DNA of 64,000 bases from a virus (lineage: Duplodnaviria > Caudoviricetes): the IMG/VR virus record IMGVR_UViG_3300020177_000966; one strand, written 5' to 3'. Shown here piece after piece: positions 3,474 to 61,096 of this stretch. The position numbers and the translations under genes are program-made. Position 1 is the first letter of the stretch; every line of letters begins with the position of its first letter. The notes beneath the pieces are model-generated. The model made no database searches. It worked only from the letters and a program-made list of their open reading frames with translations, and was not told the DNA's origin.

Positions 3474-3484
3474 GTACATATATA

Positions 3485-11947: not shown

Positions 11948-11959
11948 GTGTGTTAGTAT
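11931..11959 (+). promoter_or_regulatory. sigma70-type promoter
   Basis: TTGACA-17 bp-TAGTAT just upstream of the ATG at 11966. Confidence 0.7.
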
Positions 11960-11965
11960 AGTATT

Positions 11966-13701: not shown

Positions 13702-14005
13702 GATTAATAAAGCCGCAGAATATATTGATAGTGATGGTTATTATTATCCATGCTGTTGGATAGCTAATCAACCTTATGTTGATGATCTAAAAGAATTTCT
13801 CGGAGAAGATCTAAAAGACTTGCATACACAAAATAAATCCATACAGGATTTAAGGGAAAGTAAAGCATTAACTAAATTAGAAAATAGTTGGAATAAATCA
13901 GATTGCTTCTATGCTTGTAAGAAATTTTGTAGTAAAAATCCTGCTGACATAAAAAATGAAGGCGGCGCTCACACAATTAACGAACACATTATTTTTAATC
14001 TTTAA
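13682..14005 (+). CDS. Stand-alone SPASM/twitch-like Fe-S domain (probable C-terminal half of 13078 gene)
   Basis: IYPRC..GYYYPCCW..C..C matches the C-termini of the 2406, 3485, 4549 and 9822 proteins. Confidence 0.75.
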   Translation: MIYPRCKINKAAEYIDSDGYYYPCCWIANQPYVDDLKEFLGEDLKDLHTQNKSIQDLRESKALTKLENSWNKSDCFYACKKFCSKNPADIKNEGGAHTINEHIIFNL

Positions 14006-15176
14006 TAGTTACAAATATATCTGAAAATTGTGGATAACTTTCAAAAAAGTTTTGTCCTCTATGCTTATCTGTAATTTCTATATATCGTTTAAGATTAGGA
14101 AGTAAATAACTATCATCCTTGCTATTCATAAAATTTTTAATATAATCTAAATTTTTATTAATTTTTGGGTTAGTACAAGTTTTTTGATAGTTGTTAAATT
14201 TTTCTGTAACACGTTTTTTGATATGTTCAGGCAATGATGTTACACAGAGTTTCTCAGGATATGTTAAGTGTGTTGGATTCATAACTTTAAATCCGTGATC
14301 GTTTTCCCACCACCATTCTAAACTTTCAGGCATATTCCACACATTGAGTATGCTAATAGTACTACGCAATAGTACATCAAATCCGTGACTCTTTTTAAGT
14401 TCTAAAAAACGTTTAGTAACTGCTTCTGTAGTTTCGTACTTAGCAGGCCAGCGAATGTATTCACTTTCTGATGGATTAGCACTATCAAAACTAAGAGCAA
14501 ATTCTACTTTTTTAAATTTACTCCATTTTTCAATCCAGCTGTCTTTTGGCATAATAGTACAGTTAGTACTATAGTTTAAAAATATTTCACTGCAATCTCT
14601 TTCAGCAAGCATTTTATCTACAAGTACCCATTGGTCTTTAGTCATCAATGGCTCGCCGCCTGTAAATTTTACATGAACTAAATCATTAATAAACGGATAT
14701 ATGTTAGTAATATCACTTTTACTTTTTTCTACTTCATTAAACGATTTTCCGTAGATTAACTTTTCTTCATTAAACCATTTCCAACTGTATCTACTATCGC
14801 ACATACGACATGCAAGATTACAGTCATTACTAATAGCAAGTTCGATCCAACCTATTTTTGGATTTTCAATATCAACTAACTGATCAATTGGCAATGCTTC
14901 GTTATCAAGATAGCGTTCACGTAAGCTCTTTTTTCCAGACTCTTCTTCTTGATAGCAACGTACACACCCGTCTACTTGTTCACCAGCAAGCATCTTACGA
15001 CGGATTTCTTCCATCCAGTCACCATAAAATATTTCACTTAATGTTTTATCGTTTAGGTTATGATCCTTTGGTCTAAACTTTTCAGCAAACCTACAACATG
15101 GTTTTACTCGTGCAGTAGGATCAATAAACTGATGATCCCATGCCATACTGCAAAATGTTTTACTTGGAATTTTCAT
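13995..15176 (-). CDS. Radical SAM protein with N-terminal twitch-like domain (subfamily B)
   Basis: FCSMAW..KPCC..CVRC, then CNLACRMC, FTGGEP. ATG at 15176. Confidence 0.9.
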   Translation of the reverse strand: MKIPSKTFCSMAWDHQFIDPTARVKPCCRFAEKFRPKDHNLNDKTLSEIFYGDWMEEIRRKMLAGEQVDGCVRCYQEEESGKKSLRERYLDNEALPIDQLVDIENPKIGWIELAISNDCNLACRMCDSRYSWKWFNEEKLIYGKSFNEVEKSKSDITNIYPFINDLVHVKFTGGEPLMTKDQWVLVDKMLAERDCSEIFLNYSTNCTIMPKDSWIEKWSKFKKVEFALSFDSANPSESEYIRWPAKYETTEAVTKRFLELKKSHGFDVLLRSTISILNVWNMPESLEWWWENDHGFKVMNPTHLTYPEKLCVTSLPEHIKKRVTEKFNNYQKTCTNPKINKNLDYIKNFMNSKDDSYLLPNLKRYIEITDKHRGQNFFESYPQFSDIFVTIKD

Positions 15177-15957
15177 CTTCAAATTTCTTTACAGGTGTAG
15201 GATCTTGAATATTATTTTGACTAAGTCCGTATGCTCGTTCGTAGCACCACCAACATTGACCACAAGGGATATCTAATTTTTTCGCAATAATTTGATCTCT
15301 CCAGTTATCACATGAACATGTTAACGTCATTAATTCGTCGATTAGATTATATTTTTTATACAGGCTTACAACATCTGCTTTATCTAAGTGAGAAAGCGGT
15401 GAAGCATTATATGGTCCTGTGTAAATGTCAAGTGTTCGGTCTCTATTCTTTTGTCTAAATTCATCATTTGGAAAATGTTTTCTAAACTCAACAGGTGGAT
15501 TTTTTGTATTTCCGTTAACTTCAAAATTAACAACTTTAGACATTAACATTTCTCTAATTTTAAGTATAATAAATTCTTTCTTGCCAACCCCTGACATAGT
15601 TGCTTCTTTTGTACACTGTTCTAAAGGAATAGCGTATTCTATAATATCTCCAAATTTAAAGTCTAATAATTCTTCTACTTTTTTTATAATAGCAAGAGGT
15701 TGTACAGGTAACTTAGTAGGGATATCAAAATGTATAGGTCTTACGTTGATAGTATAATTATTATCTTTTACTGTCTTTGCTACTAGATAGAGTAACAAGG
15801 CACTATCCATACCTCCACTTATTTGAACTCCCATGTTCTCCCATTCGGGATTGATAGGCACTATAGCATCTAATCCGCTTTTAGCTTTATACGTATGTTC
15901 TATTATTTTTTGATTCTTAGGAGGATATGAACCTTTGCTTCTGTATACATATGCCAT
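15160..15957 (-). CDS. QueC-like PP-loop ATPase (7-cyano-7-deazaguanine synthase family)
   Basis: ISGGMDS PP-loop and C-terminal TCSC..PCGQCWWC Zn-binding pattern. Confidence 0.65.
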   Translation of the reverse strand: MAYVYRSKGSYPPKNQKIIEHTYKAKSGLDAIVPINPEWENMGVQISGGMDSALLLYLVAKTVKDNNYTINVRPIHFDIPTKLPVQPLAIIKKVEELLDFKFGDIIEYAIPLEQCTKEATMSGVGKKEFIILKIREMLMSKVVNFEVNGNTKNPPVEFRKHFPNDEFRQKNRDRTLDIYTGPYNASPLSHLDKADVVSLYKKYNLIDELMTLTCSCDNWRDQIIAKKLDIPCGQCWWCYERAYGLSQNNIQDPTPVKKFEDENSK

Positions 15958-32428: not shown

Positions 32429-33322
32429 TTAAGTTCCCCATGCATTTCCGAATAAGGATATGTGTAGTCTTGGTGTGAACCTCCAACCTCGCTCCATACA
32501 TGCTTCGGCGACTTCTCGAACATTGAGATTATACTCTTCTGAACGTCCGCCAAGCGGCATAAGATATACTGGACACTTAATGCCTGCATTACGGTACTCT
32601 TCCACAGCTCTTTCAACTTCTTCAAAGTCATCTTGACTAGCGACAACAAACTTAAGGTAAATGTCACTGCCGTCAACAAGGCTATACTCGCGAGCAACAT
32701 CAGGCTTAATAGCAGTTTCCCAAGGTTCTCCGCTAACGCTAAGTTTTGGGGAACAACTCCAAGTAACTTCAAATCTGTCTTGATCTGTAAGATAGTTGAA
32801 GAAATCATCGTGTAACTTTTGTGTAGTGTTTGTTTCAAATGTAACATTTTTTAGGTCTCTCATACGTGGATGTTCAAACAAATCAATGTAGAGCTTTTGC
32901 CACGCTAACAAGGGCTCTCCACCAGTCATGATCAAATGAATGTCTTGACCGTTGTCTTGTGTCCACTTACCGTTCGGAGTAAGTGACAGTAAATGTTCAA
33001 CCACTTCGTCAACTTCTGCTTGTTTATTAAAGTGTTTAAACTCTGGATAGATGCTTGCATATGTATCACAGCCTGTGTGAATAATAGGCAAGTCCTCAAA
33101 CTTTTCTGTAGTTTCGTGTACACCTGCATCAATTAATGCTTTTACTTCTGCATTGTATCTTTGTCCTTCTGCATGAAGTTCTGTGCGATTCTTTTTAGTA
33201 TCAACACCAAAGTTCATACAACGAAAATTACAACCAAAGGTACGTAAGAACACACTAGGCACCCCTACAAATTTACCTTCACCTTGCACACTGTAAAATG
33301 CTTCTGAATATCTTAATTTCAT
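32429..33322 (-). CDS. queE: 7-carboxy-7-deazaguanine synthase QueE (radical SAM)
   Basis: FYSVQGEG, FLRTFGCNFRC..CDT, MTGGEP, FETN, SPKL, PRLH. Confidence 0.9.
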   Translation of the reverse strand: MKLRYSEAFYSVQGEGKFVGVPSVFLRTFGCNFRCMNFGVDTKKNRTELHAEGQRYNAEVKALIDAGVHETTEKFEDLPIIHTGCDTYASIYPEFKHFNKQAEVDEVVEHLLSLTPNGKWTQDNGQDIHLIMTGGEPLLAWQKLYIDLFEHPRMRDLKNVTFETNTTQKLHDDFFNYLTDQDRFEVTWSCSPKLSVSGEPWETAIKPDVAREYSLVDGSDIYLKFVVASQDDFEEVERAVEEYRNAGIKCPVYLMPLGGRSEEYNLNVREVAEACMERGWRFTPRLHISLFGNAWGT

Positions 33323-33429
33323 AATGGCAACCTTCCTGTATAAAGATCAATACCTAAACTAATCATGCCCATTGCAAATACTACTACAATAAACACTTGT
33401 GCCATACGCACTGCAATATAATTACTCAT
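33319..33429 (-). CDS. Small membrane protein (36 aa; absent from ORF track)
   Basis: Own translation: MSNYIAVRMAQVFIVVVFAMGMISLGIDLYTGRLPL. It exactly fills the folE-queE gap with overlapping start/stop codons. Confidence 0.6.
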   Translation of the reverse strand: MSNYIAVRMAQVFIVVVFAMGMISLGIDLYTGRLPL

Positions 33430-34118
33430 TAGCAACTAAACTCCTGTTGTAGTTTGATGTTATCAAAGAACTCTTTCTTTGTACCTGCATCAGTTTTAAA
33501 TGCACCACGTAGTACAGTTGTTTGTGTAAGTGAACTATGTGCCATGATGCCGCGATTCTCACAGCAACCGTGTGTTGCTTGAATGTAAACGCCTAAGTGT
33601 TCTGCACCAGTTGCTTTTTGAATTTCACGTGCAATATCATTTGCAAGTTCTTCTTGCAGTGTACCACGTCGAGCGCACCACTGTGCAATACGTGTGTACT
33701 TGCTAAGTCCAATAAGTTTCTCAGCGGCAATAATGCCAATATATGCTGTACCAGTTACAGGCTGATGATGATGTGAACACATGCTTTTTAGTTCTGAACG
33801 AACTACTAACATACCTTCATAACGTTCGTCGCTATCATTAGGAAATGCCGTTGCACTTGGAATAGGATCATATCGTCCTGCCATAATCTCATTAAAGTAC
33901 ATTTTAGCAAGACGTCTTGCTGTACCTTTTGAGTTAGGATCGTTATGTCGATCAATTACTAGTGCGTCAAGTACTTGTTCAAATGCTTCTGTTGCGCCTT
34001 CGATAAGTTCTTCTTTATCGCCTTTCTGTAGGACTTCAGAGATGTTATCTCCTGCCCAGTAGCGCAAGCCTGCGTCTTCTAGCTTGCCTTTAATTTGTAA
34101 TGCTTTGCTCATTTTCAT
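33429..34118 (-). CDS. folE: GTP cyclohydrolase I FolE
   Basis: TARRLAKMY, SMCSHH, GLSK, LQEEL, HGCCENRG. ATG at 34118 with GGAG RBS. Confidence 0.93.
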   Translation of the reverse strand: MKMSKALQIKGKLEDAGLRYWAGDNISEVLQKGDKEELIEGATEAFEQVLDALVIDRHNDPNSKGTARRLAKMYFNEIMAGRYDPIPSATAFPNDSDERYEGMLVVRSELKSMCSHHHQPVTGTAYIGIIAAEKLIGLSKYTRIAQWCARRGTLQEELANDIAREIQKATGAEHLGVYIQATHGCCENRGIMAHSSLTQTTVLRGAFKTDAGTKKEFFDNIKLQQEFSC

Positions 34119-34165
34119 TTTATCTCCGATGTTAAGGCAGAGGATTGCCATACAATATACTTTAC

Positions 34166-34194
34166 AGTATACACTTTATTTAGGTTTTTGTCAA
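34166..34194 (-). promoter_or_regulatory. sigma70-type promoter with nested TAAATA
   Basis: TTGACA-aaaaccTAAATAaagtg-TATACT. Confidence 0.8.
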
Positions 34195-35003
34195 GCATTT
34201 TTTACATATTCTAAGTAATCTTTTCCAATTAATTCATGTATTTTTGTAGTATAATGCTCGCCGTCTAACCGATTTTCGTCTGTTTCAATGTTAATACCTT
34301 TTAATAACTGTAAATATCCTTCAGAAGATGATTTTGCTTTTTTACCTGCCATCCAATTTCCGTATAGTTCTACATTTTCAGGAACAAATACTCTGTTATT
34401 AATTGACCATTGGTACCATTTAATGTTGCGTCTAGCACACATTGTGTCAATAGCAAGTAGATCTAAACAGTAATCTTTATACTGCAACGGAGTCACTAAC
34501 TCGTGCCACAGTTTAGTATAGATATATTTTTCATGAAATGGAGCCCAATCAGCTTTTACTTCCATATCGTCAAATGCAAAACCTTTGAAATCCTGATAGT
34601 TTTCTGCTCGAACCTGGTCGATCATTTCTATATAGTTTTCTGTTACCCTGTGATCGGTATATCTATGTATTAGATCATCTTTTGGTTGATCATTGTCTAG
34701 GTACAAATCAACATTAGTATTTTCACCTACATCTAAATTGCGTGAACAACTTAATAAAAACCTATTCCAGTAAGTAGATTGTATAAACACTTCGTCAATA
34801 TCATCATAGCGATCTAACATTGACTTTAACCAGGCAGGATACTTTCTATTGCATCCGCCTGGTTGACTATATATAACAGTTTCTTTATTATTTGCTTTTG
34901 CATAAATTTCTGCGTAATTATTTTCTTGCCAAGCAAGAATGCCTTGCCCAGTTTCATAATAACCGTGTGCATGACTGTCGCCAATAAAAAGTGTTTTAGC
35001 CAT
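34191..35003 (-). CDS. SGNH-like hypothetical protein
   Basis: LFIGDSH, SQPGGCN, DGEHY. Confidence 0.5.
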   Translation of the reverse strand: MAKTLFIGDSHAHGYYETGQGILAWQENNYAEIYAKANNKETVIYSQPGGCNRKYPAWLKSMLDRYDDIDEVFIQSTYWNRFLLSCSRNLDVGENTNVDLYLDNDQPKDDLIHRYTDHRVTENYIEMIDQVRAENYQDFKGFAFDDMEVKADWAPFHEKYIYTKLWHELVTPLQYKDYCLDLLAIDTMCARRNIKWYQWSINNRVFVPENVELYGNWMAGKKAKSSSEGYLQLLKGINIETDENRLDGEHYTTKIHELIGKDYLEYVKNA

Positions 35004-35203
35004 TATTTAAAATACTTATTAACCATTTCTAACATATCATCATATTCGGCAATCTGTTTCATTTCTGTTTCGATTGCATCGATAATATCTGGATGCTCGC
35101 CAATGCCTGCTGGATTGTGCAAGTATACTTCTACGTTAGCTTTGTGCTTGTCAATGTGTCCACGAGCGTGTGACACAAATGCTTCTAATAGTTGTTCTCT
35201 CAT
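35003..35203 (-). CDS. Small phage hypothetical protein
   Basis: MREQLLEAF..NPAGIGEHPDI; ATG at 35203. Confidence 0.65.
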   Translation of the reverse strand: MREQLLEAFVSHARGHIDKHKANVEVYLHNPAGIGEHPDIIDAIETEMKQIAEYDDMLEMVNKYFK

Positions 35204-35213
35204 TTTTCTTTCC

Positions 35214-35777
35214 TTACATTTGGTAAACATCAAAGTAGCGAGAAACTAAATCGCGTTCTTGGTTACGTTGATGGAATGTTACGTTTTTAACCATAGGATG
35301 TGCTTCTCGCTCAACCCACTTAATTTCACCCATTGGTGTTTTTTGCCATACATCATACTGCTTTCTTCCAATAAATCCTCTTGGAGATCTTGCTCCAAAT
35401 GTTTTATGAATACTATCGCGATGAGCAAAATCTATAACATACTCGGGTGTGATTACTACACGGTGTGTATCTATTACACCGCCGTGAGTAATATTTGCAG
35501 GAGCACCTATAACTTGTCTCCAATCTCTATCTACATTTCTGAAATGAGCAATAACATCTTTACAATGTGCTTCTATTCCATGTAATCTCAAAATTCTACG
35601 GGTCATGTTAGCAATCAAAATACATTGATCACCTAACTCTTGTAAGTAATTTAAATAGTAAAGTCTAGTAAAAACAGCAATAAGTCTAGGATCAATATCT
35701 TCATCAACTATAGCTAACGACCAATCCTCTGGATCTATTTTCTTATCTAACTCAAAATCAATTAATTTAGTGTGCAT
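35214..35777 (-). CDS. Hypothetical protein, possible transglutaminase/papain-like Cys-His-Asp fold
   Basis: GDQC..LHGIEA..HRVV..VIDF. Confidence 0.4.
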   Translation of the reverse strand: MHTKLIDFELDKKIDPEDWSLAIVDEDIDPRLIAVFTRLYYLNYLQELGDQCILIANMTRRILRLHGIEAHCKDVIAHFRNVDRDWRQVIGAPANITHGGVIDTHRVVITPEYVIDFAHRDSIHKTFGARSPRGFIGRKQYDVWQKTPMGEIKWVEREAHPMVKNVTFHQRNQERDLVSRYFDVYQM

Positions 35778-36181
35778 TAACAACCATTCTCATTAATATA
35801 AACATCGTCTTCTAAGTTTTCAAGTTCGACAACGTTTTTTTTATAGTTTCCCTTCTCGGGTATCACGTGGCGAACACCGCCTCTTGGATCTTCCATATCG
35901 CCTTTGCGTCTTGGAATAAGATGCACATGAGGCCAATCAACAGTTTGTCCTGCTTCTTCGCCTATGTTCTGTCCGATATTGTAAGCATCACAATATCCTT
36001 TTTCAACCCAGTCATAACCCCAACCATATGCGGCTTTATAGCATTTGGCAAGATGATCCCAGTCTGCTATCTTAGGAACAAAAAGAACGTGTCCTTCTGT
36101 GACAGGATAACCATCCTTGAATACAACAAAGTCTCTAGTATCAATTAGTACGTCTGTCCAAGGTATATCTTTAAATTCCAT
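35777..36181 (-). CDS. HIT family nucleotide hydrolase
   Basis: PVTEGHVLFVPK and WPHVHLIPR (HIT motif variant). Confidence 0.85.
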   Translation of the reverse strand: MEFKDIPWTDVLIDTRDFVVFKDGYPVTEGHVLFVPKIADWDHLAKCYKAAYGWGYDWVEKGYCDAYNIGQNIGEEAGQTVDWPHVHLIPRRKGDMEDPRGGVRHVIPEKGNYKKNVVELENLEDDVYINENGC

Positions 36182-36755
36182 AATTAAATGCCACCGTAAT
36201 TCTTTCTTTATCAGTCATTTGTTGTTCTACTTTGTGCCACAGGTAGCTAGGAAAAATAATTAAACTTCCTGTGCTTGCCGCACAAGTAACAGTAGGAGAG
36301 TTTGACTCACACAGTTCAGTAATACCACTCTTAGGCCAATTTGCTTTTTGATTACTATTAACTAGTGTAAGTCCGGGGTGATCTTGATTTGCTTGCACAT
36401 AATAAACACCACTCCATAGGTCTGGTAAATGATTGTGTTCTTCGTGGTAAGTGTATTTGCGGTTAATACTAAACCAACTAGCCGCTAATTTCGGAATGCC
36501 TGCAAGTTTTGTTTCTTTATGACACTGTTGTACACAAAGTTCGATAAATCCTTTAAGGTCTTCTAGCAACGGATCGTTAAGAATATCACTGTTAGACCCA
36601 TATGATGTATATCCATTAGCACTATAGCGTACAGGACTTTCGTCTGATTTTTCTCTTGCTAAAAATTCTGGAACAATTTTTTTCTGTAATTCCTGCGCAT
36701 TATCGTAGACTGCTCTAAATACTTGAACAGGAAAGATATATTGTTTTTCAATCAT
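36171..36755 (-). CDS. Putative 2OG-Fe(II) oxygenase (TIGR02466-like)
   Basis: HEEHNH..SGVYYV..IFPSYLWHKV..RITVAFN. Confidence 0.8.
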   Translation of the reverse strand: MIEKQYIFPVQVFRAVYDNAQELQKKIVPEFLAREKSDESPVRYSANGYTSYGSNSDILNDPLLEDLKGFIELCVQQCHKETKLAGIPKLAASWFSINRKYTYHEEHNHLPDLWSGVYYVQANQDHPGLTLVNSNQKANWPKSGITELCESNSPTVTCAASTGSLIIFPSYLWHKVEQQMTDKERITVAFNYGI

Positions 36756-37296
36756 AGCTACCTACATTCTCCCAGGGATAAACTAACCATACGTCTTCCT
36801 CGGCTTTATTAATTTCGTGACATGAATAACTAATAGGCAAAACAGTTTCGCTAGCCATGTTATCTGTTAGAACTGCAATACGAACATTGTTGCCCCAAAT
36901 ACGATTCCATTTAGGATCGTTAGGCAAACAACTTGATTGCCAATCTTTTGCAATCCAATTAAATGTAGCACCTGTATCGTTAATGTCATCTACAATAAGA
37001 ATTTTCTTTTCTAGTGGACCACCTGTAATACGATCTTCATCTTTTTCTACATAACCAAAAGCATCTTCTGCCATCCAAAAGTTACTTTCAGGACCTTGCT
37101 CGTCGTCCCGCAAACTTACTTTCAATGCCTCACAACGAATGTTTAACATGTTACTAATAATAGTAGCAGGTACATTACCACCTCGTGTTAGTCCTACGAT
37201 GTAATCAGGACGCCAGTTGTCTTTGTACATTTGATTAACAATACTAATGCACATTTTTTCTACGTCTTGCCAAGTGTAATAGTGTTTTTTAATCAT
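36748..37296 (-). CDS. Type I (purine) phosphoribosyltransferase
   Basis: VGLTRGG and LIVDDINDTGAT PRPP-binding loop. Confidence 0.85.
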   Translation of the reverse strand: MIKKHYYTWQDVEKMCISIVNQMYKDNWRPDYIVGLTRGGNVPATIISNMLNIRCEALKVSLRDDEQGPESNFWMAEDAFGYVEKDEDRITGGPLEKKILIVDDINDTGATFNWIAKDWQSSCLPNDPKWNRIWGNNVRIAVLTDNMASETVLPISYSCHEINKAEEDVWLVYPWENVGSYD

Positions 37297-37502
37297 TTCT
37301 TTTTCGCCTGTAGTTTAGGATGAAGTGTACGATCATTATAAATGTCGCCCGCCATTGCTTGAATTTGATCTACAAGATATGTAACATGATCAACATCATA
37401 AGGCTCACCAGGAGCCTTTTTATATTTTTCTCTATGTGCTTGCACAGCCAATCCATGCATTGCACTAATCTTATCCATTAGTTGTTGAATTGTGTGTTGC
37501 AT
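37293..37502 (-). CDS. Hypothetical protein
   Basis: ORF in operon. Confidence 0.6.
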   Translation of the reverse strand: MQHTIQQLMDKISAMHGLAVQAHREKYKKAPGEPYDVDHVTYLVDQIQAMAGDIYNDRTLHPKLQAKKK

Positions 37503-37780
37503 TACTTCAGTACCTCAAATGTTTTGTATTTTTCAAGTTGTGCTTCGTAAGCATCCTTCAGTTCTCGCAGTTTAGGATACTTTGCTTCCATATCTACATC
37601 ACGCTTTAATAATAACAGAACATCACGCATTTCGTCAAGTTCTGTTAGTATGTCTCTACCCTGTACAATAGCACGGCCTTCTACAGTAAGAGTGTGTTCT
37701 ACAGGAAATGTGCTTTCTGTAATATATGGATTATAGTTTTGTGTGCTATTAAAGATAGCATCTACCCTACGATCACCCAT
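37502..37780 (-). CDS. Hypothetical protein
   Basis: ORF in operon; ATG at 37780. Confidence 0.6.
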   Translation of the reverse strand: MGDRRVDAIFNSTQNYNPYITESTFPVEHTLTVEGRAIVQGRDILTELDEMRDVLLLLKRDVDMEAKYPKLRELKDAYEAQLEKYKTFEVLK

Positions 37781-38291
37781 CGTCTTTAGCACCTCTTGCT
37801 AGATATTTTTCATTGTGAATCCAACGGTAACCTGCTTCGTGGATTTTATTAACATCTTTAACTTGAACAAATCTCATAAAGCCCCATTCCTTTTGCTTAC
37901 GTCCCATAAAGAACAAACTCCAACAAGGAATTTCATTACCTTCTGAGTCTTTAGCAAGTTCTAGCCAATGTAAATCATCTGCTGAACGCTTACGGAAATG
38001 TCCTGGCCCACGCCATACTCTTGTGCTTCCTACTACTGCACCTTCTTTACTAATAATAGGAATGTGTTCCCAATAACCACCTTTAAGAATAAATGTAGCA
38101 TAACCCCAAGGATGATCATGTAGTGTAGGTTCATCACTTACAAGAACTTTGTGTAGTGTAATATTAAAAGGAAAGTTCTTGCGTTCTTTTAAAAATACAT
38201 AATAACGGATAAGGTAAGGTACCTTTCCGTCTCTGTCTGTGATAACTCGACGCCTGCCGAGCTTGTCCATAATCTTAGAAAGGATAGTCAT
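37773..38291 (-). CDS. Cupin-like metal-binding protein
   Basis: LHDHPW..GGYWEH..LHWL cupin-like ligands; ATG at 38291. Confidence 0.55.
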   Translation of the reverse strand: MTILSKIMDKLGRRRVITDRDGKVPYLIRYYVFLKERKNFPFNITLHKVLVSDEPTLHDHPWGYATFILKGGYWEHIPIISKEGAVVGSTRVWRGPGHFRKRSADDLHWLELAKDSEGNEIPCWSLFFMGRKQKEWGFMRFVQVKDVNKIHEAGYRWIHNEKYLARGAKDDG

Positions 38292-38673
38292 CGTTAATTT
38301 CTCCTGCTTTTTTCTTTCCTTCGTAATCTTGTTTGCACATATCATATACGCTTTTAAAGTTGCGCCAAACTTTATCTAAACCTGGATAGAGTTCACACAT
38401 CTTATCGACTTGGTTTGGATCTATATTCATATTATTGTAGATCCAACTTATATCGATAGTGTCAGCAGTATTAGTGTCTATAGTAATTGTACCCGGAGTA
38501 CTATTATCAAATGCAATATCACTTGCACTGACACCTGCCCAGTACGATGTAGTTGTACCGTAGGTATCGTCTAAGTTAATAGTAACATCATCAGCAGTAG
38601 TATTATCTACAAAATTGTCCAACTTTAAATCACTTATATCGATAGTAAAACTATCATCCTTCTTTGATTGCAT
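38275..38673 (-). CDS. Hypothetical protein with D/T-rich N-terminal region
   Basis: ATG at 38673. Confidence 0.55.
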   Translation of the reverse strand: MQSKKDDSFTIDISDLKLDNFVDNTTADDVTINLDDTYGTTTSYWAGVSASDIAFDNSTPGTITIDTNTADTIDISWIYNNMNIDPNQVDKMCELYPGLDKVWRNFKSVYDMCKQDYEGKKKAGEINDDYPF

Positions 38674-39727
38674 TATACAACGCCTCTCCACTAAAAAATT
38701 GATTGTTAAGTTTTTTACGTTGTTTATCTAACGGAATATAATAATCTTTATAATTTTCCATATAATCAACAATTTTTTCTTTGAGTGGCTCTCTATATTT
38801 TTCGTATTGGGTATAATTCTTAGTCCAAATACTAGGATATTTAAATTCGTTTATTGCCATTTCACTATAGCTAAGTCTATCTGGCACCATTGGAATACAA
38901 TCTACTAGTAATCCTTCGTACCAACTAATGCCTAATGTTTCTTGCAAATTAGCACTAAACACAAGTTTAGCACGACCTAGTAGATTGTGATATTCGTTTT
39001 TAGTGAGCTCTTGTTCTTGACAAACAATAAACTCGTATTGTGTTAAGTGTTCCTTAAGATCTCTAAAGATCTCAATTTGTTTTTCAGGAGCAATGCGATG
39101 CGGAAACAAAATAATATTTTCTTTAGGCATATGTTTATAACTATCTAAACTATTTTTTAGATATTCCATAGGCCAACCTGCTCTTACTGTCTTACTAGTA
39201 TCTACCCAATCACGTTCTGGAGAACCATTAGGTTTAAAAGTATGTTGGAATAAATCAATGTGGAACTGGGTAGCAAAAAAATTGTTATCATAACATTCAT
39301 ACATAGAACGTTCAGCATTTCTTACCCAGGGTTTATTTCCAATTAGCCTACCTAAGAAATCCTGGGGATCATAACTGCCTGCATGCCACAAGCCACCAAT
39401 GCGAATGTTAACACCCAATAGCTCTGCCATGTAGCGTAGTTGTATAACTGTAGGATTCCAGGCATCGGTATAGAGAAAATAATCACCGTCCTTAATAGTT
39501 CCTGCACAGAACATTTCTCCTATTTGTTCTAGTTGTTTACTTTTGTAAACATTAGTACCACCAAAGTTAAGGAAAGCCCCAGGCGTTGTAGCCTGAGGCG
39601 TTTCCCCTCCACTAATAACTACAACTTCTTCATTTGTAGAGTTTCGCAGTTGTTTAGGAAGATACTCTTTCCACTGTTTAGTGTAGCGTGTATCTACTGC
39701 TTCAATATCTACAATGAAAATTGTCAT
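38654..39727 (-). CDS. GT-B fold glycosyltransferase (GT4-like)
   Basis: FPHRIAPEKQ, QETLGISWYEG..PMVPD (E-x7-E-like motif). Confidence 0.75.
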   Translation of the reverse strand: MTIFIVDIEAVDTRYTKQWKEYLPKQLRNSTNEEVVVISGGETPQATTPGAFLNFGGTNVYKSKQLEQIGEMFCAGTIKDGDYFLYTDAWNPTVIQLRYMAELLGVNIRIGGLWHAGSYDPQDFLGRLIGNKPWVRNAERSMYECYDNNFFATQFHIDLFQHTFKPNGSPERDWVDTSKTVRAGWPMEYLKNSLDSYKHMPKENIILFPHRIAPEKQIEIFRDLKEHLTQYEFIVCQEQELTKNEYHNLLGRAKLVFSANLQETLGISWYEGLLVDCIPMVPDRLSYSEMAINEFKYPSIWTKNYTQYEKYREPLKEKIVDYMENYKDYYIPLDKQRKKLNNQFFSGEALYNAIKEG

Positions 39728-39997
39728 TTAGTTACCTCGGTTGCTATTAAATCGGTTGTTATTGCCGCGATAGTTATTATTGCCGCGATTGTTGTTGCGG
39801 TCATTATTGCGTTTTTTCCCACCATTGCGGAACCTAGTATAGGCTTGCCATGCTGGACTCTTGTTGTTATAAAGATTTGCTTCGTCCCAAGTATAGCCGT
39901 TATGACCATATAGGTAAGCAGTTGCACAAAACGCTTTAAAACGTTCTAGGTCTTCAAACACTTTGTTATACGCTTCGCGATTAAATTCGATTGTCAT
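39728..39997 (-). CDS. Hypothetical protein with Asn/Arg/Gly-rich C-terminal tail
   Basis: KKRNNDRNNNRGNNNYRGNNNRFNSNRGN tail; GAGG RBS. Confidence 0.65.
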   Translation of the reverse strand: MTIEFNREAYNKVFEDLERFKAFCATAYLYGHNGYTWDEANLYNNKSPAWQAYTRFRNGGKKRNNDRNNNRGNNNYRGNNNRFNSNRGN

Positions 39998-40015
39998 AAT
40001 ATATATTCCTCTTAG

Positions 40016-40471
40016 TTATGACTTTGGATAAAAAATAGAACAGCCGTTTTCGTTGTCTTCAGCGACACTAATTTCTACAAAGCGGCCGGGATACTTTGCA
40101 GAAATTTCTTGATACAAGTCATCTGCGATCATCTCACATGACTTGTGATTCAGTTCAAGGACACCTTCGACATCATATAGTCGTTGCATCCAACGTTTAA
40201 ATTGAATAAACTCAATATCGCGATCGTTATGAAATACTTCAATACGAACACGGAAGTGAAAGATATGACGATGTGGAATACCAAGGAATGATACGTCATC
40301 CCAATCGCCGGTTGCTAGTTTAGGATCTTTATCAGCACCTGGGTACATATGTACACCTTCTTTTTGAAAGGTTACCCAAATACTACGTTCTGCTGTTGTC
40401 ATAGGGTTGCTCATTTTATTGTCTTCTTCTTTCATTCTACGTAACATATAATCGTGATATCTTTCTTGCAT
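40016..40471 (-). CDS. QueD/PTPS-like T-fold enzyme (6-carboxytetrahydropterin synthase candidate)
   Basis: EGVH..PHRHIFH (HxH), SCEMIA (cf. PTPS 'TxENIA'), terminal strand EISVAED; located among folE, queE and dpdA-like genes. Confidence 0.6.
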   Translation of the reverse strand: MQERYHDYMLRRMKEEDNKMSNPMTTAERSIWVTFQKEGVHMYPGADKDPKLATGDWDDVSFLGIPHRHIFHFRVRIEVFHNDRDIEFIQFKRWMQRLYDVEGVLELNHKSCEMIADDLYQEISAKYPGRFVEISVAEDNENGCSIFYPKS

Positions 40472-40480
40472 TGTCTTTAT

Positions 40481-40509
40481 AGTATACTTTCATTTCAATA
40501 CTTTGTCAA
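40481..40509 (-). promoter_or_regulatory. sigma70-type promoter
   Basis: TTGACA-17 bp-TATACT upstream of the QueD-like gene. Confidence 0.8.
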
Positions 40510-41023
40510 GCCCATATTTCGTCCAATCTGTAAACTTTTCTCTGTCCATTAGATCGTGCAAGCTATGACACCAGACACCTGGGTTAGTTGCCTTAAAATC
40601 TTTATCATCAATCTTCAACATAGTGTTGTAGTTCCACAGTTTCGCATAAGGCAATGGAATTCGAAGTTGTGGGATAAAGTTGTCATATTCTACTAAACTT
40701 GATTCAAGAAATGCTTCAGCAAGTGTAATAGGAATGTCTAAACTACAAATCTTACCTGCTGTTAGAAACGCTTTAATCATGTTTTCCCAAGGATCCCATT
40801 GATCTGCATCTTCAGGAAAGTTAGTACCTGGATTAAAACTATGATTAGCACCAAAGAAGATATGTTCGCACTGCTCTTCATCATAATGCTTTTGTATAAC
40901 ATCACAAGGTTGCACACCAGTTACAAACAGTGTCTTCATTCCATATGCAGGAGTCTTTTCAACTTCTACGCCTGTAAAGAAAACAATGTCATCTGCTGTG
41001 CCTGTTTCGTAATCTCTTTTCAT
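40490..41023 (-). CDS. Hypothetical protein between dpdA-like and queD-like genes
   Basis: 177 aa ORF; no family recognised. Confidence 0.65.
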   Translation of the reverse strand: MKRDYETGTADDIVFFTGVEVEKTPAYGMKTLFVTGVQPCDVIQKHYDEEQCEHIFFGANHSFNPGTNFPEDADQWDPWENMIKAFLTAGKICSLDIPITLAEAFLESSLVEYDNFIPQLRIPLPYAKLWNYNTMLKIDDKDFKATNPGVWCHSLHDLMDREKFTDWTKYGLDKVLK

Positions 41024-41031
41024 TCTTTCTA

Positions 41032-41241
41032 CTACTCTCCGTTTAATGAACGAAGTTCAGCTTCAAGTCGATGTATTTCGTCCTTAAACCATAACTTCAT
41101 TGTTTTCATTCTACGTACTTCTTCAGTTAATGTTTGATTATTATACTTGATTTCTAACTCTGTGTCAATGGCTCGATGTTTCCGTTTTAGTTCTTCAAGA
41201 TGTGATTCAATCTTTTCGCTAGTATTTGTGTAATTAGACAT
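41032..41241 (-). CDS. DUF465/YdcH-like coiled-coil protein
   Basis: LEELKRKHRAIDTEL..MKTMKLWFKDEI. Confidence 0.65.
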   Translation of the reverse strand: MSNYTNTSEKIESHLEELKRKHRAIDTELEIKYNNQTLTEEVRRMKTMKLWFKDEIHRLEAELRSLNGE

Positions 41242-42791
41242 TATACTTCCTCAAATAAATTACCAAAATGTGTTTGTGCATTTACAGTTTTTTTACCTGT
41301 TGCACCCCTAGTACCAATAATACTCATCCAAAATTTTGAGTGTTCTTCAATGATTTCGTTTGCTCTGTCTCTGTTGTCTGTTGCGAATATCGCATCCACA
41401 ACATCTCTAAATAAAACCCTGTCAAACTGTTCCTGAACAAGCATGGCTGGAAGATTTCCTTTATCATACTGTCTGTTTGCTTCTTGTACTGCATTTATGT
41501 GACTCCATACGTTATGCCCCATTTGAATAGCATAGCTAAAGCTATCCCAACTTGTTGAATCTTTTCCTCTTACAATAGGATTGCCGCTTTCATCTAAGAT
41601 CGGATTACCATGTTTATCACGGTCAATGTCACCTTTGAGGATTTTAGGTCCGCCTACTTTATTAGTATCTCCGGGGGCATATATACAAACATCATTAACT
41701 TTAATATTTTTAGTTAATGGACTATCTGTAAAGTTTTTAAAGATACCATCTTGTAATACTGCATCGCGAAAATTACGAGTATCATTTGCATATTTTAGCT
41801 CGTCGATACTAGGAACCATTCGATAGACCCATTTTGTTCTATCTTCAGTTTCTGTTTGAATGTAAATTTGTCCGTTAGCAGTTGCAAGGAAAGGACTAGC
41901 ACAGTCAAATGTAATTGTAAAGTTAGGATTGTGATACTTTCGAACTGCTCTTTGTACATCCGTTAGCAGTGTCGCCCACTCTAGTTTACTTGTACCTAAG
42001 AAATGCATGAAGTCATGTTTGCCTTTTTCAAGTAATCCGTCGAATCGTAGTGCAACAATACGTTTTAATGCTAGATGAATATCACACATGTTCTGACCAC
42101 CCATTGACCAACCATTAAAGTGTGTGTCAGGATACTTAACTGGATCGCAATAGTCTTTCATCTGCTGATACCAATCTTCTGCGTCAGCGTGATTTTCACC
42201 TTGCAAAACATTTAAGAACTTACAAGCACCAGTGCGATGTTTCATAAAGTAATCATTATTAATGCGTGTAGCATTAACTGCTTCTTGATATGTACTAATA
42301 CCTGTTGCTTTTACTCCTGCTGGCGAACGTGCCACCCAAGCCGGAATATCAAGGATCATTCCATAGTCCATGTAAGCATCCATCCACGCAAGAACTTGCT
42401 CACGTTTCTTTTGCGCCTTAGGACAGTTAGGATCTTTCCAATCACCTTCCCAAACACCCTTACCAATCTGGAAACCACCTGAGTCACCAAGTAGCCAACT
42501 GTTCTCTCTATCACGTTCACGCACCATTAGTTCTTTAGGTGCATCCTTGTTAATATCTAATTCAGCATGTCCTGCTGAATATAAGGTCCAGTGATAGTTA
42601 AACAATCCTTCTTTTTTGTTTAACCAATTCATACTTTCCATATTTGGATAAGGAATACGACTTTGTTCAACATATTCTTCTCTACGTTGCTTACCTATAA
42701 ATGTAGCATAAAACCCACTTAATGCAGGCAAGAATACTGCGTAGTCTTTTTGTGATGCTGTTAGATCCGTGTTCAATTTACTATTCTCCAA
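41241..42791 (-). CDS. TGT-fold guanine transglycosylase, DpdA-like (DNA 7-deazaguanine insertion candidate)
   Basis: LGDSGGFQ, MILD, VLQG, WSMGG, MHFLG and TFDCASP match TGT-family catalytic motifs; Que-pathway neighbours. Confidence 0.75.
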   Translation of the reverse strand: MENSKLNTDLTASQKDYAVFLPALSGFYATFIGKQRREEYVEQSRIPYPNMESMNWLNKKEGLFNYHWTLYSAGHAELDINKDAPKELMVRERDRENSWLLGDSGGFQIGKGVWEGDWKDPNCPKAQKKREQVLAWMDAYMDYGMILDIPAWVARSPAGVKATGISTYQEAVNATRINNDYFMKHRTGACKFLNVLQGENHADAEDWYQQMKDYCDPVKYPDTHFNGWSMGGQNMCDIHLALKRIVALRFDGLLEKGKHDFMHFLGTSKLEWATLLTDVQRAVRKYHNPNFTITFDCASPFLATANGQIYIQTETEDRTKWVYRMVPSIDELKYANDTRNFRDAVLQDGIFKNFTDSPLTKNIKVNDVCIYAPGDTNKVGGPKILKGDIDRDKHGNPILDESGNPIVRGKDSTSWDSFSYAIQMGHNVWSHINAVQEANRQYDKGNLPAMLVQEQFDRVLFRDVVDAIFATDNRDRANEIIEEHSKFWMSIIGTRGATGKKTVNAQTHFGNLFEEV

Positions 42792-43789: not shown

Positions 43790-44224
43790 TTATCCCTGGG
43801 GATGATAGGCATTACCTTCTCTGTTCGATACTCTTTTGCGTAGATCGCTTGAGCTAAATCTATGCTCTCTTTTATTGAAATAAAGTTCAATTCCTCGCTT
43901 GGCACATATTGCTCTTCCGGTAAATTTGCCGTTTTTATATTCTTCGCCAAGAATCCTTACATCAATATGAAGCATATTTAGAATATCTTCTAAATCAGTT
44001 TCTGTTTGATAAGGAATAATTTCGTCAACATACTTAACTGCACTGAGTTGAATATGTCTTTCAACAATTGTTTGAACAGGTGAGTTCTTTTCTGGCCGAT
44101 CAATACTGGGATCAATTTGTAATCCACAAATTAGATAATCACATTGTTCTCTTGCATCTCGTAACATTTGTATATGTCCTGCATGAAGCAGATCAAATGT
44201 ACTACATGTAAAGCCTATTTTCAT
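43790..44224 (-). CDS. TagD-like (glycerol-3-phosphate) cytidylyltransferase
   Basis: TFDLLHAGH (HxGH), VKYVDEII, FSSSDLR. Confidence 0.85.
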   Translation of the reverse strand: MKIGFTCSTFDLLHAGHIQMLRDAREQCDYLICGLQIDPSIDRPEKNSPVQTIVERHIQLSAVKYVDEIIPYQTETDLEDILNMLHIDVRILGEEYKNGKFTGRAICAKRGIELYFNKREHRFSSSDLRKRVSNREGNAYHPQG

Positions 44225-44940
44225 TTAAAGCCTCGTTCTTTTAAAAAGTTTTCTACTGTGTATTTAGGTCTGTGGCCTAATGTTCTCATTGCTCTTGTAT
44301 TTGCCTGGGTAACTTGTCGTTCACCAATAGTATTTAACTTAACAGGTAAATCGGGTCTTATTTCTTGGATACTAACAGTAGTTCCTGTACCAATATCAAT
44401 AGGACCTTGTACTTGACTGTCAATAAGCAATTCAATTCCATCGCAAAGATCTTCAATATGAATAAAGTCTCTTTTATGAGCTGTAACATATTCTAGTTTA
44501 TTGTTTAGTAACTTATCAAAGAACATATTTGCTCTTGGACTAGGGCCATATACTGTATGGAATCGCATAAAGCAAACATTAGGATGAGGAATAAACTCAA
44601 TTACATGTTTACTTGCCGCATACGGATTTAATTCTGGTTCGTATTGTGAGCTTGATCCTGCGACTAGCACTCTTGCATTTGGATAATAATTTAAGATACG
44701 TTTAGTACCTTCTACATTAGTATCCCAATATTTTTTAGGGTCAGCTAGACTTTCTCGAACTCCTCCAATACCGGCTAGGTGTATAACTACATCTACAACA
44801 CTAGGATGCGGTAAATCGCAAGTTAAAATATCGTCGCCTTCCTTAATATCTAATCCTAGTGTATCAAATTTTTTATCTAATCGACTAGTAAGTACAGTTC
44901 CAATAAATCCTTTATGGCCAGTTATTAATATGTTAGTCAT
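44221..44940 (-). CDS. NAD-dependent epimerase/dehydratase (extended SDR)
   Basis: ITGHKGFIG, IHLAG, YAASK, RFHTVYGP, RDFIHI. Confidence 0.88.
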   Translation of the reverse strand: MTNILITGHKGFIGTVLTSRLDKKFDTLGLDIKEGDDILTCDLPHPSVVDVVIHLAGIGGVRESLADPKKYWDTNVEGTKRILNYYPNARVLVAGSSSQYEPELNPYAASKHVIEFIPHPNVCFMRFHTVYGPSPRANMFFDKLLNNKLEYVTAHKRDFIHIEDLCDGIELLIDSQVQGPIDIGTGTTVSIQEIRPDLPVKLNTIGERQVTQANTRAMRTLGHRPKYTVENFLKERGFK

Positions 44941-45688
44941 TTTTACTCCTAAGTTGTTGGTTACTTTTTACAGCACTTTCTAAGATTAGTAGCGAACATC
45001 CAATTTCTTCTGCACTATGTAGTAATGCTTTTGTGTCTTTAGGAAAACAAGCGCCGCCAAATCCTCTTTCACCATCTGGACCAGGAACCTGCATATGACT
45101 ATGTGTAATCCTATCGTCCATTCCTACCAATGCCTTAACTTGATTATAATCTATGCCTGCTGTTTCACATAGATTAAACGCTTCATTAAAGAAAGCAACC
45201 TTTGTTGCTAAAAAACTATTTCGTAAATACTTTGTTAAAATTAATTCTTCTACTGTTGCGTATATTGGATTAAAGGCTTTACATTCTATAAACACATCAT
45301 TCCAAAATTCTTTATTACCACCACCAAATAACATCTTATCTTGGTTTTTAAAATCTTCATTGGCATTTGCCGCAGTTAAAAATTCAGGACTAAACGTAAT
45401 TTCTTTATTGTATGTTTCAAGTTGTTTCCATCCTTCTAAACTAATAGTACTTTTAATTAAGATAGGTTTGCTATTAGGACATTCTTTAATTACTGACTCA
45501 ACAATAGACATATCACATACACCAGTTACAGTCGATGGAGTTGGCACACACACGATATATCCGTCACTGTCGTCTTGAATTTCATTGTTATTATAAGTAG
45601 GATCTACAATTTTAATATCATAATGATTTTTTAGTAGTTCATATACAGCCTTGCCTACAAATCCGTATCCGATTAAAGTTAATTTCAT
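44933..45688 (-). CDS. UDP-glucose/GDP-mannose dehydrogenase family (lacks C-terminal domain)
   Basis: IGYGFVG, VCVPTP, IKSTI, SPEFL, GFGGACFPKD catalytic Cys. Confidence 0.88.
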   Translation of the reverse strand: MKLTLIGYGFVGKAVYELLKNHYDIKIVDPTYNNNEIQDDSDGYIVCVPTPSTVTGVCDMSIVESVIKECPNSKPILIKSTISLEGWKQLETYNKEITFSPEFLTAANANEDFKNQDKMLFGGGNKEFWNDVFIECKAFNPIYATVEELILTKYLRNSFLATKVAFFNEAFNLCETAGIDYNQVKALVGMDDRITHSHMQVPGPDGERGFGGACFPKDTKALLHSAEEIGCSLLILESAVKSNQQLRSKND

Positions 45689-60415: not shown

Positions 60416-61096
60416 CTAGTATTTATGCAATTCGGACTGACTTACATATTTTATGATTTTTTGTACGCCTCCGCCTAGTGCTATTTGAGCCAGCATTGCT
60501 TGCTTTTCAGTAGTGGTCCAAAAGTAAAATCCTAAACACCAACCTTTAGATCTAGCACATTCTAATGCTGTTTTTCCTATTTTAATATTAGAATTATTTT
60601 CACAGTAACTAGCAAAGTTAGGATCAATAAATTTTCCAAAATATATTTGATATGGCCATTCCACAACCTCTTCATTACAAATTACTACATTAGTATTGTT
60701 TTTTAAAAACTCTTTATTTTCATTGCTAGGAGCATGAAACTCTTCGCAATTTATTTGCTTAGATAATTTCTCTAACCAATCTTCTTCGTTTGAATAAATG
60801 TCAATGACATGTCCTTCAACTCTAATTGTGCAGTTATCTTTATTATCTAAAAATGTACGATATAATACACATGCATCCATAAACATTTCTAAAGATACAT
60901 TTTTAGGAGTTCGCAAGCCCCATTTAAAGGGGCTTGGAATTGATAACTCGCCTTCAGCAAACTGTTGCATAGTGTCTAACTTAGACTTAATATAGCTAAG
61001 ATTAAGACCTCTAAACAGCCCGGCAACATCGTTGCGTATTCTTAATTTATATAGATACTTTCTATAAAAGAGTTTAGTTGTGTTGAAGCGATTCAT
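60416..61096 (-). CDS. Hypothetical protein
   Basis: ATG at 61096 is the likely start. Confidence 0.6.
   Translation of the reverse strand: MNRFNTTKLFYRKYLYKLRIRNDVAGLFRGLNLSYIKSKLDTMQQFAEGELSIPSPFKWGLRTPKNVSLEMFMDACVLYRTFLDNKDNCTIRVEGHVIDIYSNEEDWLEKLSKQINCEEFHAPSNENKEFLKNNTNVVICNEEVVEWPYQIYFGKFIDPNFASYCENNSNIKIGKTALECARSKGWCLGFYFWTTTEKQAMLAQIALGGGVQKIIKYVSQSELHKY

Follow-up and report, generated by a model that had tools for sequence, protein, structure and literature searches.

Does a phage that is equipped to place 7-deazaguanine in its DNA also attach a sugar to that base? The question is raised by a stretch of 64,000 nucleotides from a Caudoviricetes virus (IMG/VR record IMGVR_UViG_3300020177_000966), hereafter the window, in which a glycosyltransferase (GT) gene lies among genes for the synthesis and insertion of 7-deazaguanine. 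The window covers bases 6014-70013, on the reverse strand, of a linear contig of 145,946 bases whose source is classed as a jumbo phage and whose completeness is put at about 40% (CheckV); G+C content is 31-40%, and every gene from about 24 kb to the window end, including all those of the module described here, is on the minus strand. A first-pass annotation, made from the letters alone, had listed a queE, a folE, a "QueD-like" gene, a gene of 516 amino acids (aa) with the fold of a tRNA-guanine transglycosylase (TGT) and a GT-B glycosyltransferase. All five genes are there, and the first four do form a phage 7-deazaguanine DNA-modification set, of FolE, QueE-like, DpdL-type and TGT-fold proteins. 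We suggest that the locus is a QueC-free, DpdL-type module with a built-in GT4-type glycosyltransferase that would put a sugar on the deazapurine, a proposal to which we give about an even chance.

Deazaguanine genes of the locus

Three key proteins, the 516-aa protein, the T-fold protein first called QueD-like and the GT, gave no useful match in single-sequence searches of Pfam, NCBIfam and the PDB, and were therefore assessed by their folds and their relatives. The gene for the 516-aa protein (41241-42791) is located among the replication genes. We aligned its product with 71 diverse relatives of 26-61% identity, taken from a search of 1.84 billion representatives; D103, S104 and G106 (in DSGGFQ), D148, H263, G266 and D296 (in TFDCASPF) are invariant across the 72 sequences. 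The catalytic aspartates that mark the TGT superfamily are present, their equation with Asp102 and Asp280 of TGT being one of motif likeness, not residue-level superposition. The AlphaFold model (pLDDT 89.9) found Zymomonas (Z. mobilis) TGT in all 50 of the Foldseek matches listed, with E about 1e-6, and VIA, which is independent of Foldseek, gave Z scores of 19.1 to ArcTGT, 18.2 to QTRT2, 17.6 to bacterial TGT, 16.3 to DpdA (7ui4), which inserts preQ0 into DNA, and 14.4 to Cap10, against at most 11.8 for unrelated TIM barrels. On its modeled fold, a TIM barrel of the TGT type, the protein is a member of the TGT/DpdA superfamily, as the first-pass annotation had it.

In sequence the protein stands apart. 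The Pfam TGT model PF01702 matches neither the protein at E 0.01 nor the six-frame contig at E 1, and a profile of the 72 homologs returned no TGT or DpdA from PDB sequences, only chance-level rows. We therefore regard it as a divergent branch and not as one of the classified DpdA1-4. With hhalign it scored 96.9% to the gene adjoining DpdL in Acidovorax phage ACP17 and 95.5% to a "queuine tRNA-ribosyltransferase" of Xanthomonas phage X1; the match to DpdA3 of phiST was weak (87% over 83 columns). Its predicted activity is the exchange of guanine in DNA for a 7-deazaguanine, DNA rather than tRNA being suggested by the position among replication genes and by the sharing of the module with PA5oct, in whose DNA a modified G is reported. 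Such proteins are widespread. Over 7,500 protein clusters (90% identity) match this one, its relatives are encoded on 598 IMG/VR stretches, and marine metagenomes (Tara, JGI, ENA) abound in homologs of the key proteins.

The T-fold gene (40016-40471) exists as first annotated, but its product differs from a canonical QueD. Its motif is LGIPHRHIF, a form that is conserved in the family alignment and lacks the QueD cysteine, and DpdL is distinguished by just such a replacement of the QueD motif CxxxHGH with LxxxHRHxF (PMC10516641). By tblastn, 97% of the query aligns with phiST gp040 (DpdL; by gene order, CGPG_00067), with an E value of 2e-7. Identity is 52% to ACP17 DpdL (E 3e-33) and 61% to the PA5oct counterpart; phrog_17812 is matched at 3.6e-31, and Pfam PTPS is not matched. 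Judged by signature and homology, then, this is a DpdL-type gene, for a proposed 7-carboxy-7-deazaguanine decarboxylase, and the expected base is accordingly 7-deazaguanine made by a QueC-free route.

The two remaining enzymes are easier to name. GTP cyclohydrolase I, or FolE (33429-34151), matches PF01227 at 2e-39 (135 bits, cut-off 27) and NF006824 at 1e-40, short of the 202 bits set as cut-off for the latter. The QueE-like radical SAM enzyme (32429-33322), a putative 7-carboxy-7-deazaguanine synthase, matches phrog_2076 at 2e-52 and five NCBIfam QueE models, all far under their cut-offs. Its cysteines are arranged in such a way that GCNFRC (C-x3-C) is followed only after some 49 residues by GCDTY, which gives the cluster motif an insert of unusual length; a Cx14CxxC variant of QueE exists, with an insert far shorter than this one.

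The glycosyltransferase

What kind of enzyme is the 357-aa protein encoded at 38654-39727? Its model, built on an alignment of 13 sequences with identity down to 37%, has a pLDDT of 86.8, and Foldseek matched it to GT4 enzymes of the GT-B fold at E 3e-11 to 3e-7 and with TM up to 0.67: BshA (E 3e-11, TM about 0.65), MshA, PimA/PimB', PglA, GlgM and glycogen synthase. The EX7E motif, in the C-terminal domain, reads E263-TLGISWY-E271, with both glutamates invariant in the 13 sequences, and in the ESM Atlas the protein falls in viral clusters named "Glycosyl transferase family 1". The predicted fold, with its two Rossmann domains, and the motif make it a true GT4-type GT-B glycosyltransferase, and the GT-B identity first proposed is borne out. 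PF00534 is not found in the protein at E 0.01 or in the contig at E 10; among relatives it is faint in one divergent contig (L093) and present in 29-92% of the members of related Atlas clusters. A profile of the GT family gave chance-level rows only against PDB sequences. The sole NCBIfam match, to a sigma factor, scored 23.5 bits against a cut-off of 264 and was overridden by the fold.

Two further measures are silent on how the GT might act. The isoelectric point is uninformative on DNA binding, since the GT family is acidic (4.8-6.2) and the polymerase and the DpdA-like protein are likewise. A complex prediction for the DpdA-like protein with the GT scored 0.00 against a mark of 0.32, from which we draw no conclusion.

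Linkage of the glycosyltransferase to deazaguanine genes

Is the GT a part of the module or only its neighbor? Synteny of GT and dpdA in relatives had been named at the outset as a check, and the two genes do travel together. Among marine relatives with at least 4.5 kb of sequence downstream of the DpdA-like gene (n=46), the GT, the DpdL-like gene and a 177-aa gene (40490-41023) are found in 46 of 46, a purine phosphoribosyltransferase (PRTase; 36748-37296) in 44 and an 89-aa open reading frame (ORF; 39728-39997) in 41. Where at least 9.9 kb could be followed (n=30), FolE is present in all 30 loci, QueE in 28, a HIT-family protein (35777-36181) and a cupin (37773-38345) in 29 each, and a 2-oxoglutarate (2OG)-Fe(II) oxygenase (36171-36755) in 17.

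The same holds among cultured phages. A megablast search with the locus found no match there. At the protein level, several products of the module, together with the DNA polymerase and RNase H, are 35-61% identical to their counterparts in the Pseudomonas jumbo phage PA5oct, and the gene order matches. In a set of 50,697 records, with a GT match counted at a query coverage of at least 80%, a DpdL-like gene is present in 17 of the 17 records that have the GT (eleven PA5oct-like phages, Phosso, two records of ACP17, X1, BUDD and BCSR5), and the two are immediate neighbors in PA5oct, Phosso and ACP17. A further 11 records, the phiST group among them, have the DpdL-like gene and no GT, which leads us to view the GT as an add-on to a subset of DpdL-type systems. 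The GT, DpdL-like and DpdA-like genes also stay together in divergent contigs (L089-L093) whose DpdA-like proteins are only 27-35% identical. On one of these (L092, 7232-11392) the DpdA-like and GT genes are bracketed by genes for a phosphomannomutase and a mannose-1-phosphate guanylyltransferase/isomerase-like protein, a gene arrangement that hints at GDP-mannose as the sugar donor in that lineage. Its FolE, at 403 aa, may be a fusion. On two other contigs, L087 and L088, the genes that come downstream of the DpdA-like one show no kinship to the GT (hhalign probability below 1%), and both contigs are too short to exclude a GT elsewhere.

The linkage extends into cellular genomes. In a scan with the GT alignment, one genome per species, 36 of the 38 loci found in bacterial and archaeal assemblies have a DpdA-like gene within a few kb of the GT. 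The eight closest loci (53-73% identity) are on contigs of metagenome-assembled genomes (MAGs) that carry phage-module genes, such as FolE or a phage DNA polymerase, and hence look like phage DNA; the remainder include isolates of Ochrobactrum, Devosia, Pelagibacterium, Azospirillum, Methylobacterium, Aurantimonas, Shimia, Sulfitobacter and Magnetospirillum. Two layouts recur. In the first (17 loci, some with an integrase), a Vut_1/YhhQ-like membrane protein gene stands between the DpdA-like gene and the GT; on alphaproteobacterial chromosomes it is often accompanied by an integrase and by a conserved product, about 850 aa long, that matches no family, and in Ochrobactrum sp. MYb379 (L104, 641-13823) a GmrSD-family nuclease is nearby. 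We take the Vut_1/YhhQ family to be preQ0/preQ1 importers, so that this gene is an independent pointer to deazaguanine bases. In the second layout (L118 and L119-L127), the GT is joined by DpdL-like and DpdA-like genes, a canonical QueD (PF01242, 1e-22) and a 288-aa protein of unknown kind; in Magnetospirillum aberrantis (L118, 2244-12823) and in L123 this unit adjoins genes for a CoiA-like nuclease and HEPN proteins. The alphaproteobacterial unit of DpdA-like, YhhQ-like and GT genes may be an undescribed modification-restriction island. The GT is, in short, tied to deazaguanine genes across many phages and bacterial islands.

This breadth bears on the possibility that the GT is a mere neighbor in an early region, with a target that has nothing to do with deazaguanine, for example a protein of the virion, an envelope polymer of the host or a different base in DNA. 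JGI labels the homologs "glycosyltransferase involved in cell wall biosynthesis", and the window holds further sugar-related genes, a set of three nucleotide-sugar-type genes (43790-45688; Pfam and NCBIfam matches) adjoining the B-family polymerase. We nevertheless find such an explanation improbable. The GT stays with DpdA-like or DpdL-like genes even as its wider surroundings change, in two types of bacterial island as well as in at least eight separate lineages of phage, and the sugar-nucleotide genes next to the polymerase are not conserved. The latter are a cytidylyl/adenylyltransferase, present in 24 of 54 relatives, a short SDR epimerase (44221-44940, 239 aa), present in 39, and an NDP-sugar dehydrogenase (44933-45688, 251 aa), which lacks a match to the C-terminal domain and is present in 11. 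They are variable accessories, not core genes, and the first-pass annotation, in which support for a sugar had been read from them, needs correcting here. The epimerase and the dehydrogenase are also shorter than typical members of their families, which makes their activity doubtful. As to another DNA base, the contig start, outside the window, carries, within C1:4-884, both a thymidylate synthase that is cut by the contig end and scores 234 bits against a TIGR03284 cut-off of 108 and a dCMP deaminase; this true ThyA and the deaminase argue against a sugar route through 5-hydroxymethylcytosine (hmC) or 5-hydroxymethyluracil (hmU), and we saw no sign on the contig of an hmC/hmU pathway of the hydroxymethylase type.

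A second alternative grants the GT a place in the pathway and denies the sugar a place on DNA. Phage DNA would then contain only 2'-deoxy-7-deazaguanine (dDG) or its 7-carboxy counterpart (dCDG), and the GT would glycosylate a pterin or deazapurine intermediate, or would be a non-catalytic or targeting partner of DpdA. One point for it is gene order: the GT is mostly found directly beside the T-fold gene, whose family binds pterins and purines, and this is so even in Phosso, where the DpdA-like gene is about 170 kb away. GT-B glycosyltransferases that act on pteridines exist, for instance the tetrahydrobiopterin glucosyltransferases of cyanobacteria; the closest solved structures are small-molecule GT4 enzymes; and 7-deazaguanine provides no hydroxyl. 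The bacterial islands speak the other way, as many of those in the Alphaproteobacteria keep the GT with the DpdA-like and YhhQ-like genes and have no T-fold gene, FolE or QueE within loci of 17 kb, and this links the GT with base insertion and not with the chemistry of pterins. The invariant EX7E motif, in turn, speaks against a purely structural role. On balance we consider this alternative unlikely, if the most serious of those raised here.

A proposed pathway to a glycosylated deazapurine

We can now set out the pathway that a sugar-adding module of this kind would follow. FolE would open GTP; the QueD step, to 6-carboxytetrahydropterin (CPH4), would be supplied by the host or by a gene not seen on this incomplete contig; and the QueE-like enzyme would convert CPH4 to 7-carboxy-7-deazaguanine. 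The DpdL-type enzyme would then yield 7-deazaguanine by decarboxylation, as has been proposed for DpdL, and after replication the DpdA-like enzyme would swap guanine in the phage DNA for this base. The GT would add a sugar to the deazapurine, either on DNA or on the free base prior to insertion, to give a purine with a sugar on it that would protect the DNA against nucleases of the host. Each chemical step is something we infer from the folds, motifs and linkage described above, and this applies most of all to the sugar transfer and its attachment site. In one chemically coherent version, DpdL would free the electron-rich C7, and this carbon or an exocyclic position would receive the sugar from the GT.

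The PRTase would fit this pathway in a supporting role. It matches PF00156 at 8e-13 and the xanthine phosphoribosyltransferase model NF006613 at 3e-10, the latter under its cut-off, and resembles Gpt, the xanthine-guanine phosphoribosyltransferase; a Pribosyltran gene is likewise part of the PA5oct-type module. By our inference, guanine displaced from the DNA is probably salvaged by this enzyme, as GMP, for the GTP pool on which FolE draws. The same enzyme invites a different reading, however, in which the deazapurine enters DNA as a nucleotide, before or during replication, by way of a 7-deaza-GMP made by the PRTase, and in which the TGT-fold protein acts on tRNA or otherwise. The toyocamycin and tubercidin pathways provide a precedent for phosphoribosyltransfer onto the free base of a deazapurine, the conservation of the PRTase in marine relatives and in the PA5oct-type module speaks for this reading, and the gene for a HIT nucleotide enzyme is nearby. 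Against it, the TGT-fold gene stands among replication genes and has kept its catalytic aspartates, the PRTase is absent from the bacterial islands, and all phages shown to have deazaguanine in DNA encode DpdA, with insertion held to be post-replicative (PMC10516641). We judge entry as a nucleotide to be very improbable.

Several observations weigh against a sugar on the base, and the main difficulty among them is that 7-deazaguanine has no hydroxyl to accept one. The nearest solved GT4 structures, BshA and MshA, use small-molecule acceptors and not DNA, and DNA glucosyltransferases of the T4 type are not among the 50 best fold matches of the GT; the small-molecule acceptors of these solved enzymes make it conceivable that the sugar goes to a pterin intermediate or to the base while it is free. 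No Pfam model, whether for GT or for TGT, matches at the sequence level. The decarboxylase activity of DpdL is itself only proposed, that of phiST and ACP17 DpdL included. Several alphaproteobacterial islands combine the GT and a DpdA-like gene with no detectable DpdL-like gene, so the acceptor there may not be plain 7-deazaguanine, and the contig at hand is only about 40% complete. We give a little less than an even chance to the specific claim that phages and integrase-bearing alphaproteobacterial islands put a sugar on 7-deazaguanine in DNA, which would amount to a glycosylated purine in natural DNA.

If that claim is true, the sugar-bearing deazapurine would add a new class to the known DNA bases, with a bearing on how phages evade restriction and CRISPR, on the type IV nucleases and glycosylases able to target such DNA, and on tools for sequencing and enzymology. 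Islands that combine the GT with GmrSD-family or CoiA-like nucleases and a YhhQ-like importer would then constitute a new type of modification-restriction system. DpdL-type dDG systems are known already; what is new here is DpdL-type deazaguanine modification with an integrated GT. Importantly, the module is found in the cultured phages PA5oct, ACP17, X1, BUDD, BCSR5 and Phosso, and the matter can hence be answered by routine nucleoside mass spectrometry.

Transcription and further genes of the locus

A match to the sigma-70 consensus, TTGACA-17-TATACT, lies at 40509-40481 on the minus strand, 10 nt before the start of the DpdL-like gene, and this gene, the 89-aa ORF and the GT follow in succession with gaps of 18 nt and 0 nt. 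The first-pass annotation had placed the T-fold gene and the GT under this one promoter; the site is where it was said to be, and co-transcription of the three genes is plausible, with the reservation that promoter-like sites in the region are no more numerous than in shuffled sequence. Perfect sites (TTGACA-17-TATAAT, 12 of 12 positions) on the coding strand precede the 248-aa, 177-aa and RNase H genes, at 43774-43746, 41168-41140 and 31867-31839 (all minus); two are immediately upstream of a gene start, and that at 41168-41140 falls within the coding region of a small DUF465 protein, the following gene starting about 115 nt farther on. These sites suggest that the region is transcribed early by the host polymerase. 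A further promoter-like site (34194-34166) is near FolE.

Of the smaller genes, the conserved 177-aa protein has no family match, and an Atlas feature search gave scores below 0.8 and no lead; its homologs stand beside FolE in ACP17, on the divergent contig L093 and elsewhere in PA5oct-like genomes. The 89-aa ORF, between the DpdL-like gene and the GT, encodes a small basic protein (pI 9.9), again with no family match. The cupin protein belongs to phrog_4786 (2.6e-34), a PHROG named "cysteine dioxygenase"; the HIT-family protein, a nucleotide hydrolase or transferase, matches PF01230 at 3.8e-9; and the 2OG-Fe(II) oxygenase, of the TIGR02466 family (2e-22; PF13759 at 1.4e-20), is variable and probably accessory.

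It is also worth asking whether the contig offers a route through preQ0. The Pfam models for QueF, PTPS and TGT match nowhere in its 146 kb, and there is no canonical QueD in the portion of the genome that it represents. The absence of queF and of Gat-QueC/ArcS from the window, stated in the first-pass annotation, is correct for QueF; a weak QueC-like gene (15160-15957) had been overlooked. Its product is a PP-loop protein with SGGMDS and a C-terminal cysteine cluster, which matches PF06508 at 29.6 bits over its C-terminal part only and scores 23 bits against a QueC equivalog cut-off of 150. FolE, QueE and the DpdA-like gene keep company with the DpdL-like gene, and the QueC-like gene is 17 kb away from them on a contig that is 40% complete. 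We have rejected it as the preQ0 synthase of the module, given that it sits inside a radical-SAM island and has no homolog in PA5oct, ACP17 or X1; its only homolog in a cultured phage, Ralstonia phage RsoM2USA, is in a genome that is absent among the GT, DpdA-like and DpdL-like matches. The radical-SAM island itself (2406-15182) consists of twelve radical SAM/SPASM genes in a row, eleven on the plus strand (2406 to 13701) and one on the minus strand (13995-15182). At the other side of the window, the phage encodes a full-length AAA+ unfoldase of the ClpA type (61074-63326, minus strand, 750 aa), with 875 bits to TIGR02639, under the cut-off of 993.

Comparison with known systems

To our knowledge, the DNA bases known to be decorated with sugars are all pyrimidines: glucosyl-hmC, arabinosyl-hmC and base J. 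No description of a glycosylated deazaguanine in DNA was found in our literature searches, which left out most subscription journals, and the first-pass remark that such a base is not among the described phage modifications stands to that extent. Eight 7-deazaguanine derivatives are known in phage DNA, none of them sugar-bearing (PMC10516641).

A near relative of the module is that of Cellulophaga phage phiST, whose group has been shown to carry plain dDG in its DNA (Cui, Hutinet et al., NAR 2023, PMC10516641). The two systems have in common a QueC-free gene set, FolE, QueE, a T-fold protein with LxxxHRHxF and a divergent TGT-fold transglycosylase that adjoins replication genes. They differ in that phiST has no GT, that its DpdA3 is a protein of 259 aa only weakly related to the 516-aa protein, and that it has a canonical QueD and a MazG-like gene, neither of which is present on this contig; what the module described here has beyond phiST is the GT, the 177-aa protein and the Gpt-like PRTase.

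Closer still in gene content are PA5oct (Wroclawvirus) and ACP17, which share with the locus a polymerase, a 248-aa structural protein, the DpdA-like protein, the GT, the DpdL-like protein, the PRTase, QueE and RNase H, in common order and at 35-61% identity. These phages have other hosts and belong to other lineages, ACP17 has a canonical QueD in addition, and in both the GT is recorded as hypothetical and goes undiscussed in the paper on the phage. Two published results on them take on interest in this light. A 2025 preprint inferred that PA5oct DNA carries a modified G of undefined chemistry, citing QueE and a PTPS-like gene, and reported that PA5oct is targeted by nucleases that sense hypermodified DNA. 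Cui et al. found that dpdA and dpdL of ACP17 gave no dDG in E. coli and considered that further enzymes were perhaps required (PMC10516641). The GT gene of ACP17 lies between its dpdA and dpdL, and the GT may explain both the modified G of PA5oct and the missing dDG.

For the sugar transfer, the T-even alpha-GT and beta-GT offer a functional analogy, which we propose as such: they too have the GT-B fold, and after replication they attach a sugar to a DNA base outside the canonical four. Their GT families are different ones, and their acceptor is the hydroxymethyl group of a pyrimidine, 5-hydroxymethylcytosine. A second comparison is with QTMAN/GTDC1 (PF12038 with Glycos_transf_1), the tRNA-queuosine alpha-mannosyltransferase, a GT4-type enzyme that transfers a sugar onto a 7-deazaguanine derivative in nucleic acid; the mannose-related genes around the GT on L092 are a further point of likeness. 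The acceptor of QTMAN, in contrast, is the cyclopentenediol of queuosine, which is beyond the reach of the pathway proposed here. The Atlas cluster of QTMAN matches the GT with TM 0.77, generic GT4 clusters reach 0.72-0.80, and QTMAN_N (PF12038) goes unmatched in the contig at a threshold as loose as E 10, so we claim no specific kinship with QTMAN.

The bacterial Dpd system, finally, provides the parallel for insertion followed by tailoring: with DpdA, DpdB and DpdC it makes dPreQ0 and dADG, a TGT-fold transglycosylase inserting a deazaguanine that is then modified (PMC10164549). The bacterial relatives of the GT likewise occur in integrase-bearing islands with DpdA-like genes and GmrSD-family or CoiA-like nucleases. 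No DpdB or DpdC appeared among the island neighbors in a general Pfam scan, which was not a search aimed at these proteins, and DpdA itself (7ui4) was not the top match of the 516-aa model. The tailoring in the module proposed here would differ from that of the Dpd system in its enzyme, in that a GT would take the place of the amidohydrolase-type DpdC.

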